Shown: positions 18,868-63,070 of the stretch, one piece after another
Numbering within the stretch: position 1 is the stretch's first letter
Layout of the letters: every line of letters begins with the position of its first letter
Assembly (NCBI GenBank): GCA_035221665.1
Contig: CM069133.1
Coordinates: 99,696,001 to 99,760,000, forward strand
Length of the DNA: 64,000 nucleotides
Direction: 5' to 3'
Origin: Okamejei kenojei
Lineage: Eukaryota
Position numbers and translations under genes: made by a program
Notes under the pieces: model-generated
Seen by the model: the letters and a program-made list of their open reading frames with translations, nothing else
Database searches by the model: none
Told to the model about the DNA's origin: nothing

Positions 18868-18927
18868 TTTATTTCGGAGTCACGTGAGTGACTTCGTGAA
18901 GACCCCGCCAGCACGCATGCGCGACAT
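18868..18927 (+). repeat. DIRS left terminal repeat
   Basis: 18893-18927 is the inverse of 23901-23935; 18868-18898 is complementary to ICR 23680-23709. Confidence 0.92.
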
Positions 18928-19041
18928 ATCGTCGTGCGCATTTGCCTCGACAAGCTGGGGGGGGGGGGGGGGAGTGCGCTCACTCCACCAGCTCCTTCAG
19001 AAGGCCGTCAGGTAAGTCCACTAACCTTTACTTCGTACAGG

Positions 19042-20623
19042 ATGGACGCCAAAGGCAAACGGAAGGCGACACTCTCCAGGAGCCGCGGGGCATCAACAAG
19101 CCAGCGGCCTCTTTCACCGGAGCTGCAAGCACCACCGGCAGCATCCGGACGGTCGGGGGGAAGAGTGCGGAAGTCGGGCGCTTCCGTTACACCAGCGCCC
19201 GACTTATCACCTGAATGGCTGACCGCACAGGAGCTGGATATTACCAACCCAGACTTCGTGCTCCCATCCCCCAGGAAGCGGGGGAGCAGACAGGTACGTG
19301 GACAGGAGCCTCGCTCGTCGCCAGCGACCTCACCCCGAGTTGCAGTGGATCCACGGGGACCAGGCCGGGGAACGGCTGCGCTACAGGGGAGCCCCGCAGC
19401 CGCAGCACGCCATGTACAGCCGCCGGGGATATCTGCCGTAGGGCAGTCTGGCAGAGCTACTGCTGTGTCGAGCAGCCCTGCAGGAGCAGGTGCTGTCGGC
19501 ATAACACCTCGTCAGGCTGCGGTCAAGGGCACTGGTGGCAGCAGTAAACGGTCGGTTAGCTTAGTTCTGGCAGCTGCCGACCATGCACCTCCACGCAGAA
19601 CATTGGGCGACAGTGGAGGTAAGCCTGCATGGACTCTGGGGAGCCAGGTTCCGGGGGCCGGCGCCGATTCATCTCCACTGCCTTCCTACCAGGCAGGTGG
19701 GCCGCCACAGTCCGCTCGAAGGCCGACTAGCGGAGAGTCCGTGCGGGAGTCGTATGAGCCTACAGAGGCGGTAGGCCACGACAACCTGCCTTCGGAGCCT
19801 AGTCTGCATCTTACAGTAGGTGTGGTCCGTTGGTGGAAGCCCCAGAGAATTTGCAGAGCCTGGGGAAGTCGGCTTGTCCGCCGCGAGTAGCGGGGACGGT
19901 CGCATTGAGCGGTTGGAGCTCTTGGTGAGGCAACTCCTCCAGCGGGACAGGGACCGGGAAGCCAAGAGTGCCAGTAGTTGTCCGGCCGCTGCCTTCGAAG
20001 AGGACCTGGGACTGCCGGAGACCGCAGAGCCAGAGCACGTGGAGGACATGGCTGGACGTGGTGGGTAAATTTTGCCACGGCCACACACCACTGGGGAGCC
20101 CCTGCACCACAAACTGGCGGGGCACCATTAATTACTGACCACTCACCAGCTTCAGGGTCACGTCCTCGATGGGGATAATGTGTCCAGCGAGCAGCAGGAT
20201 GCCCTGGCACTTTTATGCAACGCCCAGTTTGAAATCAACTGCCTGCGCAAGAGCTCCATCCGGCCCACTCTCAACCCGAAATTTGCGGGGTTGTGCCATC
20301 CCTCCACCACTCCACCACCTCATCAACTGTTTGGGAAAGATCTCTCCAAGCAAGTCAAAGAACTCGACGAGGAGGCCAAAACTGTGGGCCTTATGAAATC
20401 TCCTCCGGCAAAACCACACCCATATCACCGTCAACAACCACACACTACTTGGAAGCAGCGCCAGCCGGATAGGGCACCAAGGACCTGTCACCCTCCACTT
20501 CCCCAACCACAGCGGCCTTTTTTAGGGCAAGGCCTGCAGCGGCCCGCATGGAAGATGCGGCTGCCATCCCGACAACCACCGCAACGTCCCCCCAAAACGC
20601 CATACGCCAGGACCCGCCGCTAA
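19042..20623 (+). pseudogene. DIRS ORF1 (gag-like), frameshifted
   Basis: ATG at 19042; low-complexity N-terminus; C-terminal QDALALLCNAQFEINCLRKSSIRPTLNPKFAGLC...LFGKDLSKQVKEL in ORF 20180-20623; split across frames. Confidence 0.75.
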
Positions 20624-20625
20624 CC

Positions 20626-22500
20626 ATGGAGGTAAGGGGGTCTGGTTCCTCCTAGGCAGTAGCATTTCTTCCTGCACAAGTCGGGGGACAGTTGCGGGCA
20701 TTTAGGGGAGCTTGGGATACTATCACCATTGATGCGTTTATTCTACAAAGTGTTCAAGGTTATGTCATAGAATTCATTGATGGTCAACTTCCCCTACCCA
20801 GCATGCACTCAGCGAAAATGTACACTCTCTCAAAATGAGATAGAGGCAGGACATACTGAAATCTTACGGCTTGCAGCCAAAGGGGTGATTGGCAAAACGA
20901 CGGACGAACCACTTGAGTTTGTGTCCAACATCTTCACAAAAACCAAAAAAGATGGGTGGTGTTGGATTATCATAGACCTAACCAAGTTGAACACTTTTGT
21001 ACAATATACCCATTTTAAAATGGATACCTTCTAAACAGCTAAGCAAATGGTTTACCCGGGGTACTTTATGGCCTGTATCGATTTAAAAGATGCATTCTCT
21101 ACAGTTCCCATCACAGAATCGCACAGAAAGTTCCTGAAATTTGTCTGGAAAGGACAGTTGTGGCAATACAAAGCATTACCTAATGGGCTCACTACAGCCC
21201 CCCAGACTATTTACCAAATTAGTGAAACCTAAATTGGCCCTCCTCCGACAACAAAATTATATCGTCATGGCGTATTTAGATGATATCCTTATCGTGGGTC
21301 AGACCCTCTAATTGGCTACACTGGCAGTTACAGCGACCAAATCTTTATTCGAGAAGCTAGGGTTTGTAACCCATCCAGACAAATCCAACTGCACCCCTCT
21401 CATATTATGTATTACCTGGGTTTCACCCTTGACACAACCTTAATGGTGATGACTATCCCGACCAACAAAGCTACCGCCATAAAAGAAGTGTGCCACAGCC
21501 TTGCTTGTGCCAGGGTTCTGACTATCCGGCAAACGGCAAAGGTGATTGGGAAGCTGGTAGCTACATTCTCAGCTGCGCAATTCGGACCGTTACATTACCA
21601 AAATTTACAAAGAGCAAAGATCGCAGCATTAAAAGCAAATGCTGGGCACTTTGATCGACCAATCCGGTTGCCACAACAGGCTACAACTGAGCTGCAATGG
21701 TGGATTGACAATATTAGTGAGTGTCACAGACCCATCATTGTTAGCAACCCATCCATTGTGCTACAGACTGACGCAAGCGCACAAGACTGGGGTGCAACTG
21801 ACACCATGTCCAGTTGTGGTGGCAGATGGCACTCTCACGAGTCTACCCTCCTCCAGACACAAGGGATAAATAATCTGGAGATGTTAGGGGCTTTCCATGG
21901 ACTACAGGCTTACTGTACTAACTCACGGGACTTACATGTCCACCTCCAAATAGATAACACAATGGTGGTGGCTTATATCTATCATATGGGTGGTATCAGG
22001 TCATTATCTTGTGATGAATTGGCAAACACAATTTGGCACTGGTGCATCGAGAGAAATATTTGGAACACAGCGACCTATTTGCCAGGGAAGCTCAATACAG
22101 TGGCGGACACCAGGTCACGTGTTCAATGACAACATCGAGTGTTGAACCCCCAAAATATTGCTGATATTATAGCTCACTATGGGACACCAGATATTGACCT
22201 CTTTGCGTCCAGGTTGAACCATCAGATACCAACATATGTGTCTTGGGAACCAGACCGTGGGGCAGTAGCTATGGATGCTTTTTCTATCCATTGGGGGAAA
22301 TGGTTTTGCTACGCATTTCCCCCATTCTGCCTCATCAGTGGGTATTGCAGAAAGTTTCAAAACTGGATTCTGCAACTGGCATTTTGACATCCCGACTGGC
22401 CTACACAACCTGGTACCCGATGGTCTTCAAAATCTTGAAATATCCATGGCTTTAGTCTGATTGGTAAACAAACCCAAATTAATTACTAACCCCATTACGG
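20626..22500 (+). pseudogene. DIRS ORF2 pol: reverse transcriptase, RNase H and Dam-like methyltransferase domain, disrupted
   Basis: VGGQLRAF...GYVIEF; IDLKDAF; LPNGL; YLDDILI near 21273; TDASAQDWG, NLEM, IDN, NTVAD; PDIDLFAS...YAFPPF; several stops and frameshifts. Confidence 0.92.
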
Positions 22501-22546
22501 GGGACAGTCACCCGTGCCATGGTCACCTAAACATGTTGGCCTGCAG

Positions 22547-23503
22547 GTTCTAAAGAGGCTGCTCGTCAATGCCGGCATATCACCACGAGCCATGGACCTC
22601 ATCTCAGCATCATGCCGAGCATCAACCAGGAGGCAGTACCTCACACAGATCAGGAAGTGGGAGGCATTCTGCTCCCGTACCAACACGACCTCCAACTCGG
22701 CAACAATCCCTGATGTCCTGGAATTCCTAGCGGGCCTTCATTTCGATGCTGGCCTTAGCTACAGTGCCATCAACAGCGCCAGGAGTGCACTGTCCTCATA
22801 CCTGGACATAGGTATAGGCTCCAACCACCTGGTGTCTAAATTCATGAGGGGAGTGTTTAACACCAACCCTCCACGGCCCAGATACAACTTCACCTGGGAC
22901 GTAGGGATCGTTCTGACCCTACTGAGGAGCTGGTCCGAGTTACCACTCAAACAGCTCACCCTCAAAGTGGTGATGCTGATGGCACTGACTACAGCTCAAC
23001 GAGTCCAGGCATTACAAAAGCTGCGGCTGGATAGCATGGTCTCCATCCCTACACAGGTGACTTTCTTTGTCCAGGACCTATTGAAGCAGCACAGACCTGG
23101 GGCTCATGGGCTGCAATTGGAGTTTCGGGCGTACCCCACTGATGCCACCCTTTGCATAGTCACCCATCTCCACCTCTACATCCGCACTACACGAACCATC
23201 AGGAAGATGGAGCAGGGGCCTCCTCATCAGCCACAAACCTCCGCATCACCGGGTGACTGTGCAGGACTATCGCCAGGGTGGCTCAGGGCGGGTTGGGTGC
23301 AGCAGGAGTCGCTACTAACATTTTTATATCTCACTCTACTTAGGGCTGCATCCACATCAGCGGCGAGGGCCATGGAGGTGCCCATAGACCACAGCCTCGC
23401 CACCGCTGGCTGGGCTAGTGAAGCAACCTTCCAAAGGTTCTACAACAAACCACTGGTCGCCCACACAACATTCGCAGAAGCCGTGCTGGGAGCCGCTCAG
23501 TGA
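22547..23503 (+). pseudogene. DIRS ORF3 tyrosine recombinase (compensating frameshifts in the C-terminal part)
   Basis: STRRQY...W..F, LSYSAINSARSALS, PRPRYNFTWDV, TAQRVQAL (catalytic R), frameshifted H-S-T-R near 23332-23344, AGW, FQRFY. Confidence 0.9.
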
Positions 23504-45826: not shown

Positions 45827-47445
45827 ACGGTCTAGAATGCTGCATTTCTAACATTTTCCATTTATATCTATTATATTTATACTTAGAAAAAGAGATAAAA
45901 TCAGTTTTTGCACAATCATCATTCAATGGCAATATACACAGATGTATTGTGTATCTTAATGAAGACTATTTTTGGCAATCAATCCTCAAATAATGTACTA
46001 ACCCAAGCCTCTGGCATATTACACACCATTTTGGCATGTCATTAAACCAGACTGAAATGGATAGTATTGATCTCAATGTATACCCGGATAACACACCTTA
46101 ACATTTATCCTTCCTCCATTACCAATAGAATGTGTCCATTTAGTGTTTTAGCAAAATATTAATAGTTGTCTTCTGTTGCCATTGGCATTATCCTGTTTCC
46201 AGTGCAAAACAATAAGAAGCTTTTAAACAATAGCCTATGCCTATAATGGGCTGGACAGTACATTTTACCAAATCCAAGGCATTTTGTAACCTTACCCAAA
46301 ATGCACCGTCCGTGGGCAGCCGCTCTCAAAGTAAAACTGCAAAATTTAAAGTTAAGCAATTTATGAAACTGTGACCTTGACTTAAAACAAAACGAACCAT
46401 AAATAATAGCTCTTGTCCATTCAACCTCAATTGCATAAATTGTTTGGGCTTCAACAAAATCTGTTTTGATGAAACATGGACAATGACAAAAGTTTATTGA
46501 CTAAATAGAAGGCAAATGGTCTGACTTTTCCATCAAGATGATGTTTCAGAAAGCCAAGGTTAATTTTCAAAAAGATTATTGTACTACAAGCTTCAAAATA
46601 TGATAAGAATTATTTTTAAAAAATCACATCAACTGGCCTTTGTAGTATAGCAAGATGTTTAAGCCCAAGCACAAATTACATTATTTGATTATGAACTATT
46701 ATGAAATGTTATAGAAACGATTATGAAAAAGTATAGAACCATTAGCATGACATTTATTAAAAAACTATTGGTGTGATAATACAGTAACTCTTGGGAATGA
46801 TTAATGCAGAATCTCATAAAACTTATGTGGTAAAAGCCTGACAGGAAGTTTGGAAGACTGGTTACAATGCTGAGCAACACAAGCTGCTTTTATAATGGTA
46901 TTTTACACCAGCTGGAGACTGGGGGAGTGGAATTCCTTCTGTTTGGGATGAGTCTACTTTTGCACATCAGGAAACTTTGATTTTAGAGGCTTGCCCCATC
47001 TTCTGCTTTCTTCCTGAGAGAGCAAAAAGTATTCAGCTGCCTCAATGTTGTGAGAATCTACAGTATCACCTCAATTATGGTGGATTGCAAACTGGGATAG
47101 ATTTCCATTTGGTAGAAAGAAGTCCCGACTGTTACTTCAACGTATTGTGGTAAGGGGCTTTTACATAAGTCTTTGGTTATAGATGTGGCTAGGGCATGTA
47201 GCAATTTTAGTGAAGGTGTCCTTCATGAAATTCTAACACAAGAACACATGCTTTTCAAGAACATTTACCTGATATTTTACAAAGGGTTTGAAACTGCACT
47301 GAAGTTGTATTATATAAGATAAATCTTATTGGATATTCTTTTATTGACAAGATCTTCTGAGGTAAGAATTTACTTAGCTGATTTTATTATAATAATTCAT
47401 TTATATCCTCCTTGGTGTAAATATCACCTTTCTATTAATTCTAAC

Positions 47446-47498
47446 GGGGTGGGAGATTGCAACATTCACATGGTCCACCCTGTTTCAGCTAATGCAAT
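47446..47498 (+). ncRNA. HDV-like (CPEB3-type) ribozyme fold, copy 1
   Basis: P1 GGGGUGG/CCACCCU, P2 AUUGCA/UGCAAU, P3 ACA/GGU (1 mismatch), L3 UUCACAU, J4/2 CUAA. Confidence 0.75.
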
Positions 47499-47584
47499 AA
47501 CCCGACATGCACAAACAAATAGATCAAATAGAACAAATTGACCTACAACTCTTGGCTGCGCACGGCATATGCAAGAAGAAGAAG
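47446..47584 (+). mobile_element. 139-bp ribozyme-headed retroposon (probably Vingi/Ingi-dependent), copy 1
   Basis: 12-bp TSD attaattctaac (47434-47445 / 47585-47596); (AAG)n tail; homologous to 62929-63070. Confidence 0.88.
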
Positions 47585-48094
47585 ATTAATTCTAACAAGT
47601 CTGAGTTGGTGAATGGAACTATACAATGGTGGAAACGACTTAAATATTTACATTGCGTTAACAATGTACCAAGCTAACATTTGGCATTGGTTTCATACAA
47701 GAAACTGTATCCTGCGGTCACAAGCTCATTCTATAGGATGTGGCCTGTGGGACAAGGTGTACTGTGATCATCCACTTTACTGGAATTCCAGGCAGCTTAC
47801 TGAGTATAAAATAGCACCCCAGAGAGTGTCAAGTGCGTTCACCTGTTTTTCTCTATGTTGGCCAGATGTTCCAGTAAATAGATATCTGTCTTATGAAGGC
47901 ATTACCCAGAAAAGACTCATGCAGTAACAGTACTGTGATCGGTTGAGGGCAAGAATATATTAAATGAGTTACCTGCAAAGAACAGAAACTGTCAATAGTT
48001 TATTAAGCAAAAATATATCGGCTTGAATGGAGCGACATAAAATTCTGCTTAAAACAACTTTCATTCATGGTTCTAAGATTTCATATTTCCTTAT

Positions 48095-48780: not shown

Positions 48781-50658
48781 ATCTCCTTTGCTCCTTAGAT
48801 GCTGCTGCACCCGCTGAGTTTCTCCAGCCTTTTGTGTACCCCAGAGTATCTGAGATGCCAGGCGCCAACTCTCAGACACCTCCTCCTACTTATCCTTGGA
48901 TCATGACACCACAGATGAGCACCAGGCCATTATCTCAAATACCATCACTGGCTTCATCACTTCCGGCTTCCTGCCCTCCCAAGCCTCCAACCTCATCGTT
49001 CCCCAGACCCGCAGGGCCCAATTTTTCCTTCTCCCCAAAGTCCACAAACCTGACTGTCCTGGCAGACCCATTGTTACTGCTTGTTCTTGCCCCACCGAAC
49101 CTATTTGCACATTCCTCAACTCCCATCCCCCCTGGTCAAATCCCTCTCTACCTATGTCCAAGACACCTCACATGCTCTTCGTCTCCTCCATGATTTCCGT
49201 TTTCCATGCCCCCACTCCCTCATCTTCACCATGGATGTCCAGTCACTCTGCACCTCCATCCCCCACCAGGAGGGTCTTAAAGCCTTCTGTTTCTTCCTCA
49301 ACCGCAGAAACAACCAATCCCCATCTACAAATACTCTCCTCTGCCTAGCGGAGCTGGTCCTTACCCTCAACAACTTTTCATTTAACTCCTCCCATTTCCT
49401 CCAAATAAAAGGCATACCTATGGGCACTTGCACGGGCCCCAGCTATGCCTGCCTCTTTGTGGCGTACATCGAACAATCCTTGTTCGAGGCGTACCGTGGC
49501 CCTACCCCTGAACTCTACCGCCGCTACATTGACGACTGCATTGGTGCTACCTCCTGCACCCATGCAGAACTCACTGACTTCATCCATTTCACCACTAACT
49601 TCCATCCGGCACTCAAATTCACGTGGACCATTTCCAACATCTCCCTACCTTTTCTAGACATCACTATCTCAATCGCAGGTAACAGACTACTGACCGACAT
49701 CTACTACACTGACACTGACTCCCATGGCTATCTGGACTACATTTCTTCCCACCCTGCTTCCTGTAAGGACTTTATCCCCTACTCCCAATTGCTCTGTCAA
49801 TGCTGCATCTGCACCCAGGATGAGGTGTTCCACACCAGGGCATCGGAGATGTCTTCATTCTTAGGGAACGGGGGTTCCCCTTTTCGACTATAGATGAGGC
49901 TCTCACCAGGGTCTCCTCTACATCCCGTAGCTCCGCTCTCACTCCCCATCCCCCCCACTCGTAACAAGGACAGAGTCCCCCTTGTCCTCACCTTCCACCC
50001 CACCAGCCATCACATACAACAGATAATCCTCCGACATTTTTGCCACCTCCACTGGGATCCCACCACTGGCCACATCTTCCCATCTCATCCCCTTTCGACT
50101 TTCCGCAGAGACCGCTCCCTCCTTATCTCCCTGGTCAATTTGTCCCTTCCCACCCAAACCACCCCCTCCCCTGGTACTTTCCCTTGCAACCGCAGGAAAT
50201 GCTACACTTGTCGCTTTACCTTCCCCCTCGACTACATCCAAGGACCCAAGCAGTCCTTCCAGATGAGGCAGAGGTTCAGCTGCACCTCCCCCAACCTCAT
50301 CTATTGCATCTGCTGTTCTAGATGTCAGCTGCTCTACATCGGTGAGATCAAGTGCAGGCTTGGCGATCGCTTCGCCCAACACCTCCGCTCAGTTCGCATT
50401 AACCAACCTGATCGCCTGGTGGCTCAGCACTTCAACTCCCCCTCCCTTTCCGAATCCGACCTATCTGTCCATGGCCAATTGGAGGAGCAGCACCTCATAT
50501 TTCCCTTCGGCAGTTTACACCCCAGCAGTATGAACATTGACATCTCCAATTTCAGGTAGTCCTTGCTTACTCCTTCCTTCCCCTCCCCTTCCCAGCTCTC
50601 CCACAGCCTGCAGTCTCCGCCTCTTCCTTTCTTCTTCCCGCCCCCCCACCCCCACATC

Positions 50659-59500: not shown

Positions 59501-60735
59501 TAAAGTAAAGTAAAGTAAAGTAAAGTATCCTTTATTGTCATTCAGACCTTTAGGTCTGAATGAAATCTTGTTGCCTTGCAGTCATACATTTAATAAAATA
59601 ACAAAACACACAATAAACACAAATTTACATCCACCACAGTGAGTTCACCAGGCACCTCCTCACTGTGAAGGCAAAAGTCTTAAGTCTTTGTCTCTTCCCT
59701 CCTTGCTCTCCCTCTGCGCTGAGGCGATCCATGCCTCCGAAGTTGTGACGCCACCGGGTGATGGTAAGTAAGTCCCGCGGCTGTATCCGAGCTCCGCGAA
59801 TGGGCTGGTTCAAGCTCCGCAGCCCGGGGTGGTTGAAGCTGCCGAAGCTGCCGCCCTCCAGTCCAGCGGACGAAGCTGTTGCCGTGGGAGCTCCGGAAAA
59901 ACAGGTCACCAACCTGTGACTTGCGAGCTCCCGACGACGTCTGCTGGGCCCGCGGCCGAACCTCCGAGGTCGGGCTGCCATCACCACCGGGCCACCTCCT
60001 CAGCCCCGAGTCAGGCCGTCGCCGCCAGGACACCTCCCCAGCCCCGAGCCAGGCCAGTCACCGTCGGGACACCTCCCCAGCCCCGAGCCAGGCCCTCACC
60101 ACCGCCGGGACACCTCCTCAGCCCCGAGCCAGGCCTTCACCGCTGGGACACCTCCTCAGCCCCGAATTGAGCCGCCGTACCGCCGGGACACCTCCCCAGC
60201 CCCGAGCCAGGCCAGTCACTGCCGGGACACCTCCACAGCCCCGAGTCAGGCCGTCGCCGCCGAGACACCTCCCCAGCCCCGAGCCAGGCCAGTCACCGCC
60301 GGGACACCTCCACAGCCCCGAGCCAGGCCCTCACCACCGCCGGGACACCTCCCCAGCCCCGAGCCAGGCCAGTCACCGCCGGGACACCTCCCCAGCTCCG
60401 AGCCAGGCCGTCACCGCTGCCGGAATCCGCCACAGCCCCGAAGTCTGCCAGCCTCGCGCTGGTAAGTTCTGGCTGGCTCTGCCTCCGGAGCATCGGATCG
60501 GTCGCAGTTGGAGGCCGCCAGCTCTGCCATTAGGCCTCAGCGCAGATGGAGACGGGGGATACGACAAGAAAAGTCGCATCCCCCCCGAAGGAAAGGACTA
60601 AGACACATTTCTCCCCCCACCCACACACATACACACCCTAATAACTCAAATTAACTAACTAAAACAGGACAAGGACAACAACAAAAAAGAAAAAACAGAC
60701 GGACTGCAGGCTAGGGCAGCGCCGCCACTATGGAG
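59501..60735 (-). mobile_element. GC-rich non-autonomous retroposon with Rex1-like 3' end (copy 3), with internal minisatellite
   Basis: Minus strand: ggcggcgctgccctagcctgcagtccg head; 12-bp 3' hairpin at 59538-59563; AATAAA; (CTTTA)n tail. Confidence 0.75.
59985..60440. repeat. GC-rich minisatellite, about 11-12 units of 38-41 bp
   Basis: Unit approximately cacctccccagccccgagccaggccagtcaccgccggga. Confidence 0.92.
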
Positions 60736-62928: not shown

Positions 62929-62981
62929 GGGGTGGAAGATTGCAACCTTCACATGGTCCGCACTGTTTCGACGAATGCAAT
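62929..62981 (+). ncRNA. HDV-like (CPEB3-type) ribozyme fold, copy 2
   Basis: P1 GGGGUGG/CCGCACU (1 mismatch), P2 AUUGCA/UGCAAU, P3 ACC/GGU, L3 UUCACAU, GU-UUCGA, J4/2 CGAA. Confidence 0.78.
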
Positions 62982-63070
62982 CAACCCGGCGTGCACAATC
63001 AAATAAGATCAAATAGAACAAGTTGTCCTACAACTTTAGGTTGTGCACGCCAGATGCAAGAAGAAGAAGG
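62929..63070 (+). mobile_element. 142-bp ribozyme-headed retroposon (probably Vingi/Ingi-dependent), copy 2
   Basis: 8-bp TSD atggttca (62921-62928 / 63071-63078); (AAG)n tail. Confidence 0.88.

Follow-up and report, generated by a model that had tools for sequence, protein, structure and literature searches.

By analogy with published systems, the ribozyme-headed, internally deleted LINE is already a known kind of element, represented by the R2 SIDEs of Drosophila and by the NARTc and RIME elements of trypanosomatids. As described by Eickbush and Eickbush (2012; PMC3414825), R2 SIDEs are internally deleted derivatives of a non-LTR retrotransposon in which an HDV-like head is joined to the LINE 3' end. 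The SIDE head has been shown to self-cleave, and R2 primers contain an ACC-loop-GGU core. NARTc, RIME, and the SIDERs, the short Ingi-group derivatives that accompany L1Tc and ingi, carry an HDV-like ribozyme at position +1, and several of their heads are reported to cleave in vitro (PMC4035085). Vingi LINEs, in the account of Kojima (2018; PMC5786205), have a single open reading frame with an APE endonuclease and a reverse transcriptase (RT) but no RNase H, and give rise to derivatives that retain the 5' and 3' ends around an internal deletion. The family described here has the internal deletion, the LINE 3' end, the HDV-like head, and the ACC-loop-GGU core of the R2 SIDEs. Those elements are confined to rDNA, few, and longer (529 bp in the described case), with heads that contain all of P1 to P4 (PMC3414825), whereas this family is dispersed, 139 nt long, P4-less, and present in more than 13,000 copies. 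It also differs from the trypanosomatid elements, whose 77-nt head contains P4 and has promoter activity and which belong to protist hosts and to Ingi rather than Vingi (PMC4035085).

The DNA analyzed here (the window) is a 64,000-nt stretch of the Okamejei kenojei genome. The preliminary description of this DNA had proposed a tiny retroposon headed by a CPEB3-like ribozyme. On the forward strand, a 139-nt element occupies positions 47446 to 47584, ends in (AAG)4, and lies inside a perfect 12-bp target-site duplication, whose left (47434 to 47445) and right (47585 to 47596) copies are 100% identical direct repeats, as had been claimed. Its first 79 nt (47446 to 47524) correspond to the 5' end of a Vingi-type LINE and its last 47 nt (47538 to 47584) to the 3' end of that LINE; between them lies a 13-nt filler (47525 to 47537) that is absent from both LINE ends, is found in the short element only, and partly duplicates the letters immediately preceding it. 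A second family member lies on the same strand at 62929 to 63069, is 86% identical, and has an 8-bp duplication; it sits in a broken RT remnant, and its head is damaged too (G25A and C34A). Elsewhere in the window are a GC-rich segment with RT-like and tyrosine-recombinase-like frames (18892 to 23503), which we take to be probably a DIRS-type element; broken RT and GIY-YIG-like frames (48854 to 50559), presumably a Penelope-like element; and a GC-rich tandem array with a 39-bp unit in ~11 copies (59977 to 60441).

The head of the window copy (47446 to 47498) is a P4-less HDV-like ribozyme motif that has been damaged. Its segments are P1 (47446-52/47475-81), P2 (47456-61/47493-98), P3 (47462-64/47472-74), L3 (47465-71), P1.1 (47467/47482), a 5-nt loop (47484-88), and the catalytic-position C at 47489. 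The segments named in the preliminary description were found where it had placed them, but its 6-bp P2 and GAG J1/2 do not hold for the family, in which P2 is 7 bp (G10-C54) and J1/2 is therefore 2 nt. To score the fold we used a loose-P4 HDV descriptor coded from the supplement of PMC4870747, comprising the nested double pseudoknot (P1, P2, P3, and P1.1), an L3 of the form TYYHCGY, and a J4/2 of the form CNRA. This descriptor found no match in the whole window; both family copies fail, and the copy at 47446 to 47584 fails even with one P3 mismatch tolerated. In that copy C19A (47464) breaks P3, G25A (47470) removes the G25.U20 pair that is thought to position the catalytic Mg2+ (PMC4836649), two further changes fall in the 5-nt loop, and C54 is missing. 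The earlier claims that this copy fits the double pseudoknot and works as a ribozyme have no support, and, judged from its sequence, it is a decayed family member that is probably dead as a ribozyme.

The family itself is very abundant, as a copy-number check proposed earlier would ask. A 17-nt word across the internal junction has 13,204 exact matches in the 2.76-Gb genome, compared with 1 for the reversed control, which rules out a chance origin and sets the copy number at no fewer than 13,204. Since the junction word is present in only 20 of the 30 best-scoring copies, a total of ~20,000 is suggested, and a fixed grid sample of 398.5 kb, with two full and two partial copies, agrees with this estimate. 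The consensus predicted in the preliminary description is close to the real majority sequence.

The 5' ends were assessed in 75 copies picked by the junction word only, with the 5' end ignored (the first 75 listed, on contig 1; four pairs among them have common flanks). G1 is reached by 69 of the 75, and the other 6 are 5' truncated, so that full-length copies start at G1, where they had been expected to start, and not upstream of it. A target duplication of 9 to 15 bp was found in 51 of the 69 full-length copies; it abuts G1 exactly in 23, overlaps it by 1 to 3 letters in 13, and is separated from it by 1 to 7 unrelated letters in 15. The sole conserved letter upstream of G1 is a T at -1 (39/69); it usually lies within the duplication, and target choice probably accounts for it. 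Contigs assembled from public sequencing runs (4 examined of the 24 listed, which carry at least nine coded organism labels) have the same 5' boundary with unlike flanks. Such contigs cannot reveal RNA starts, and those from runs guessed to be RNA join host sequence to G1, which shows the presence of uncleaved RNA or of DNA. Uniform starts at G1 would likewise be accounted for if the main role of the head were that of an internal Pol II promoter, or of a protective fold that fixes G1, with cleavage weak, lost, or secondary. Capped transcripts leave an extra G at the 5' junction as their expected trace; only 1 of the 51 copies has one, which speaks against a promoter.

We reached the parent element by way of a Pfam endonuclease search, which gave a LINE with a similar terminus, whose endonuclease in turn led to several families. 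The initial search with PF14529 returned mainly Nimb-like, CR1, and L2-like elements, and 1 of the 20 places examined was Vingi-like; searches with clean LINE parts then gave 36 endonuclease-region and 768 3'-region candidates. Nucleotides 1 to 79 of the short element are the 5' end of this LINE, and nucleotides 93 to 139 are its last codons, 3' untranslated region (UTR), and tail. Both ends match the same LINE copies (L326, L328, L329, and L127). For the window copy, 47446 to 47524 is 86 to 92% identical to the 5' ends of five LINE copies (L166, L168, L169, L183, and L188), and 47538 to 47584, which contains the final codons, a short 3' UTR, a CCATACG-type terminus, and the (AAG)4 tail, is 78 to 89% identical to the 3' ends of 20 of 25 LINE loci (L191 to L215). 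The short element is thus bipartite in the SIDE sense, with both ends from one autonomous LINE, and the autonomous partner with the same ends that the preliminary description had called for exists in this genome. Its proposal of a SIDER-like unit copied by a Vingi/Ingi-type LINE is borne out to that extent. The signs of target-primed reverse transcription are present as well, in the 9- to 15-bp duplications (51/69) and the (AAG)n tail, and the common 3' end suggests that the short element is mobilized in trans by the LINE protein.

Near-full copies of the parent are 3,044 to 3,099 nt long (~3.05 kb), with the same head and tail around an endonuclease and RT frame that is broken in the copies examined. 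The RT piece matches RVT_1, no RNase H is present, and the C-terminal piece of the frame matched no Pfam family. The closest intact homologue is a protein of 1,019 amino acids that is 75% identical and contains the endonuclease and RT families only; named protein matches were arthropod proteins, and the ESM Atlas returned generic RT clusters only. This compact single-frame layout with APE endonuclease and RT but no RNase H is the one described for Vingi (PMC13708176). An RT tree of 37 rows was built with no named Vingi or RTE protein and with L111 excluded for low coverage; in it the ribozyme-headed families all fall into a single clade (99/99), apart from the rows labeled Nimb, CR1, and L2-like. 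Within this set the parent falls together (99/99) with the families that have heads matching the 5' ends of named Vingi elements. A search of viral contigs for a Vingi-like RT found none.

Nine of 13 head-bearing parent copies begin at nt 4 to 13, not at G1, and late-starting copies (L162, L168, L177, L181, L185, L187, and L328), whose first letter is nt 5 to 13, are without the 5' strand of P1. Parent copies are thus frequently 5' short, yet 69 of the 75 short copies reach G1. We also observed repeated 5' inversions in which the ribozyme head alone is inverted beside the LINE body (L127, L163, L175, and L202; L429, L431, L435, and L438). Head-only inversions of this kind may be the route by which two-ended short elements arise.

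In size, copy number, and tail the family resembles an ordinary Pol III SINE, in which a head derived from a small RNA would be joined to a Vingi tail and the fold would be incidental, and tRNA-headed SINEs with Vingi parts are described (PMC5786205). The head here is the LINE's own 5' end, however, and neither a tRNA nor a mismatch-free A or B box was found, in line with the earlier statement that Pol III boxes are absent. We rejected this identity on those grounds and regard it as the most improbable of the readings considered, with next to nothing left in its favor.

Among the full-length short copies, 33 of 69 pass the HDV descriptor, as does the LINE head L169. Passing heads have P1 GGGGUGG/CCRCCCU, a 7-bp P2, P3 ACC/GGU, L3 UUCACGU, then GU, a 5-nt loop, and CNAA; P4 is absent, the loop following two letters after P1, and P1.1 consists of one pair and a U.U. 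There were 0 descriptor hits in shuffled DNA (2 Mb) and, with the catalytic C changed to A, G, or T, again 0 in the 398.5 kb of grid DNA, and a chance fold was therefore rejected. One intact 54-nt head (the L300 type) is present 1,259 times unchanged, compared with 0 for its control. Of the earlier proposal of a P4-less vertebrate HDV ribozyme, then, the part that concerns the family stands, its fold passing an independent descriptor, and the part that concerns the window copy does not. An Rfam scan of the window region and eight intact short copies, which the preliminary description had named as a check, gave no HDV or CPEB3 match at E values up to 10. Nested folding with ViennaRNA, a tool that cannot form P2 or the pseudoknot, gave stabilities not above those of shuffled sequences (z of -0.4 to 1.0).

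Variation in the head was examined in 65 nonduplicate copies. J4/2 is most commonly CUAA (37/65), followed by CGAA (22/65). The main subfamilies differ at positions 8, 32, and 45, and all of these changes are compatible with the fold; because 48 of the 162 possible single changes (30%) preserve it, they are weak evidence of selection. T29C, which breaks a P3 pair, occurs in 7 of the 65 copies and, taken as a fourth lineage change, lowers the selection argument to roughly p 0.08. On this model of the fold, the family head is predicted to self-cleave just 5' of G1.

The known ribozymes closest to this head, by sequence and layout, are the theta and minimal ribozymes of phages. Minimal P4-less ribozymes have been described from metagenomes and gut phages, where they often adjoin tRNAs (Kienbeck 2024; PMC10879173). 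The same report gives P4-less theta ribozymes that cleave in vitro and are abolished by a C-to-U change, lists theta ribozymes with two P1.1 pairs, and records none from its search of human, mouse, and protist genomes. Like them, the family head has no P4, a short L4, a 7-bp P2, the same P3 and L3, and CUAA. Entry 1782 of that list has the P3, L3, loop, and CUAA of the head and one extra A after P1, so that the two differ by one base, outside the helices; a UUUCGA loop occurs in 317 of the 7,704 minimal ribozymes listed there. Unlike the theta ribozymes, the head leads a retroelement, adjoins no tRNA, has one P1.1 pair, and is one base shorter after P1. The exact animal head variant had 0 occurrences in viral contigs, and none of three viral matches to the theta-type core passed the descriptor script. 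We prefer convergence on a compact loop to shared descent with theta ribozymes.

HDV-like heads are found on related LINEs as well. The descriptor is passed at the 5' ends of sister families A, B, D, and H, where P1, P2, and P3 differ in sequence but still pair. Of the 80 LINE loci scanned, 8 gave a hit, always at the 5' end and in sense; these belong to families A, B, and D and the parent and have differing helix sequences and P4 regions of 16 to 40 nt. The head of family E can be fitted by eye if one bulge is allowed. Five of 75 metagenome loci, representing 4 distinct heads, were also hit; every one of these hits is in sense and upstream of the endonuclease, and the corresponding control gave 0 hits in 282 kb. 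In ~19 of the 27 metagenome loci that match near the N terminus no HDV core was seen, and these include the four relatives nearest the parent (L346, L347, L349, and L350); a ribozyme common to all Vingi-like LINEs is therefore not demonstrated. Two family D heads reach 35.6 and 28.4 bits with RF02682, short of the cutoff of 44. By eye, a sea-urchin family given as confirmed ribozymes in the supplement of PMC4870747 looks identical to the 5' segment of Vingi-2_SPur in the supplement of PMC5786205, which ties one tested ribozyme to a Vingi element. The family D heads (L108, L111, L128, and L129) are very similar, again by eye, to the second sea-urchin HDV family in the former supplement. The grid sample also contained, on the minus strand of L267 at 4141, a descriptor-passing HDV-like motif with a 44-nt P4 region.

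These sister families bear on the promoter alternative. Its attraction is that the 77-nt L1Tc head (Pr77) is reported to be both promoter and ribozyme (PMC8256844), that not all well-folded SIDER heads proved active in vitro (PMC4035085), and that T29C copies with a broken P3 pair exist here. The sister families nevertheless keep the pairings and the catalytic C despite changed helices, as a DNA promoter would not need to do. A sigma-70 scan, for a motif that is irrelevant to this host, gave chance-level results. We consider it unlikely, though not negligible, that the head acts mainly as a promoter or protective fold.

A second short family, of ~175 nt (L442 to L445 and L469 to L474), is flanked by duplications, ends in (AAG)n, and begins with a head that lacks P4 and has a CPEB3-type P3 (GCG/CGC) and a UUCCA loop. 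P4 thus seems to have been lost at least twice. In a ~95-nt element at L436:1511-1610, a few letters separate a CPEB3-type head from an (AAG)n tail.

The preliminary description had presented the head as CPEB3-like and as bearing on the origin of CPEB3-type ribozymes. From the structure given in PMC4836649, the CPEB3 ribozyme and the family head both have G1.U36, the same L3, one G-C pair and a U.U in P1.1, and the catalytic C first in J4/2, and the CCCU-GU run is common to them; these likenesses would fit a head that is close kin to, or the source of, the mammalian ribozyme. The CPEB3 ribozyme differs in having P4 and another P3 and in being single copy and intronic (PMC4836649). P2 and half of P1 differ too, and in its P3 (ACC/GGU) and loop the family is at least as close to R2 and phage theta ribozymes as to CPEB3. 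The Rfam CPEB3 model (RF00622; cutoff, 35 bits) gives no match to the family head at E values up to 10 but does match sister families H and I. The RT tree, too, places the parent on a different branch from family H. A specially CPEB3-like character of the head is not supported, and its direct kinship with CPEB3, largely refuted, is rejected as very improbable.

The bearing on CPEB3 holds instead through the sister families. In this genome 42 of 59 scored places match RF00622, 30 of them above the cutoff (best, 66.8 bits), whereas 14 control genomes gave no match. Heads of LINE families H and I (L421 to L441 and L457) score 42 to 67 bits; family I has 9 matches in the whole genome. Over the first 46 ribozyme positions L422 agrees with the RF00622 consensus at 44, L423 does so at 56 of 67, and a compensatory P2 pair is common to L423, L427, and L432. 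L457 is a LINE with a CPEB3-type head followed in sense by endonuclease and RT matches, and at the metagenome locus L398 a Vingi-like frame is preceded by a match of 55.6 bits. Sister-family heads agree with the 5' ends printed for Vingi-2_Gav, Vingi-4_Crp, Vingi-2_SPur, and Vingi-1_BF (PMC5786205); these named elements, from crocodilians, sea urchin, and lancelet, open with the same CPEB3-type sequence. A Vingi trace is reported in the human genome (PMC5753468). In the main text of a paper on CPEB3 ancestry (PMC8233481), the words origin, retro, and transpos are absent. Our literature search found no paper tying Vingi to ribozymes or CPEB3; Repbase, Dfam, and patents were outside its scope, and it does not establish absence from print. 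From their near identity to the CPEB3 ribozyme, the sister Vingi heads likely point to the source of the mammalian ribozyme. Somewhat on the favorable side of even, in our judgment, is the joint proposal that most Vingi LINEs are HDV headed, that two families of mini-derivatives in this vertebrate genome independently have P4-less heads of the gut-phage type, in thousands of intact copies, and that CPEB3 is a domesticated Vingi 5' end.

For the short family, we are fairly confident of a reading that starts from the observed two-ended origin, copy number, 5' ends, duplications, and fit to the fold: it is derived from a Vingi-type LINE by internal deletion, has a predicted ribozyme as its head, and would be self-cleaved from read-through RNA and copied by the LINE protein. 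An element copy would be transcribed by read-through from a host or neighboring promoter, and the head would fold and cleave immediately 5' of G1, so that the released RNA would have no cap and G1 as its first nucleotide. The endonuclease/RT protein of the LINE would then bind the LINE-derived 3' end and nick the target, and the RNA would be copied back to G1, giving the 9- to 15-bp duplication.

The Vingi source and the route to CPEB3 appear to be new, as do the occurrence in a vertebrate of a P4-less head in many copies and the presence there of another P4-less family whose P3 is of the CPEB3 type. The match between Vingi 5' ends and CPEB3 makes the origin of the CPEB3 ribozyme testable, through an empty site expected in nonmammals and perhaps an adjoining Vingi remnant. 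Heads with and without P4, together with two separate P4-less families, form a natural series for structure-function work. If the head cleaves, the smallest natural HDV fold would not be confined to phages, and the genome would hold thousands of intact minimal ribozymes able to cut any sense transcript that runs through them.
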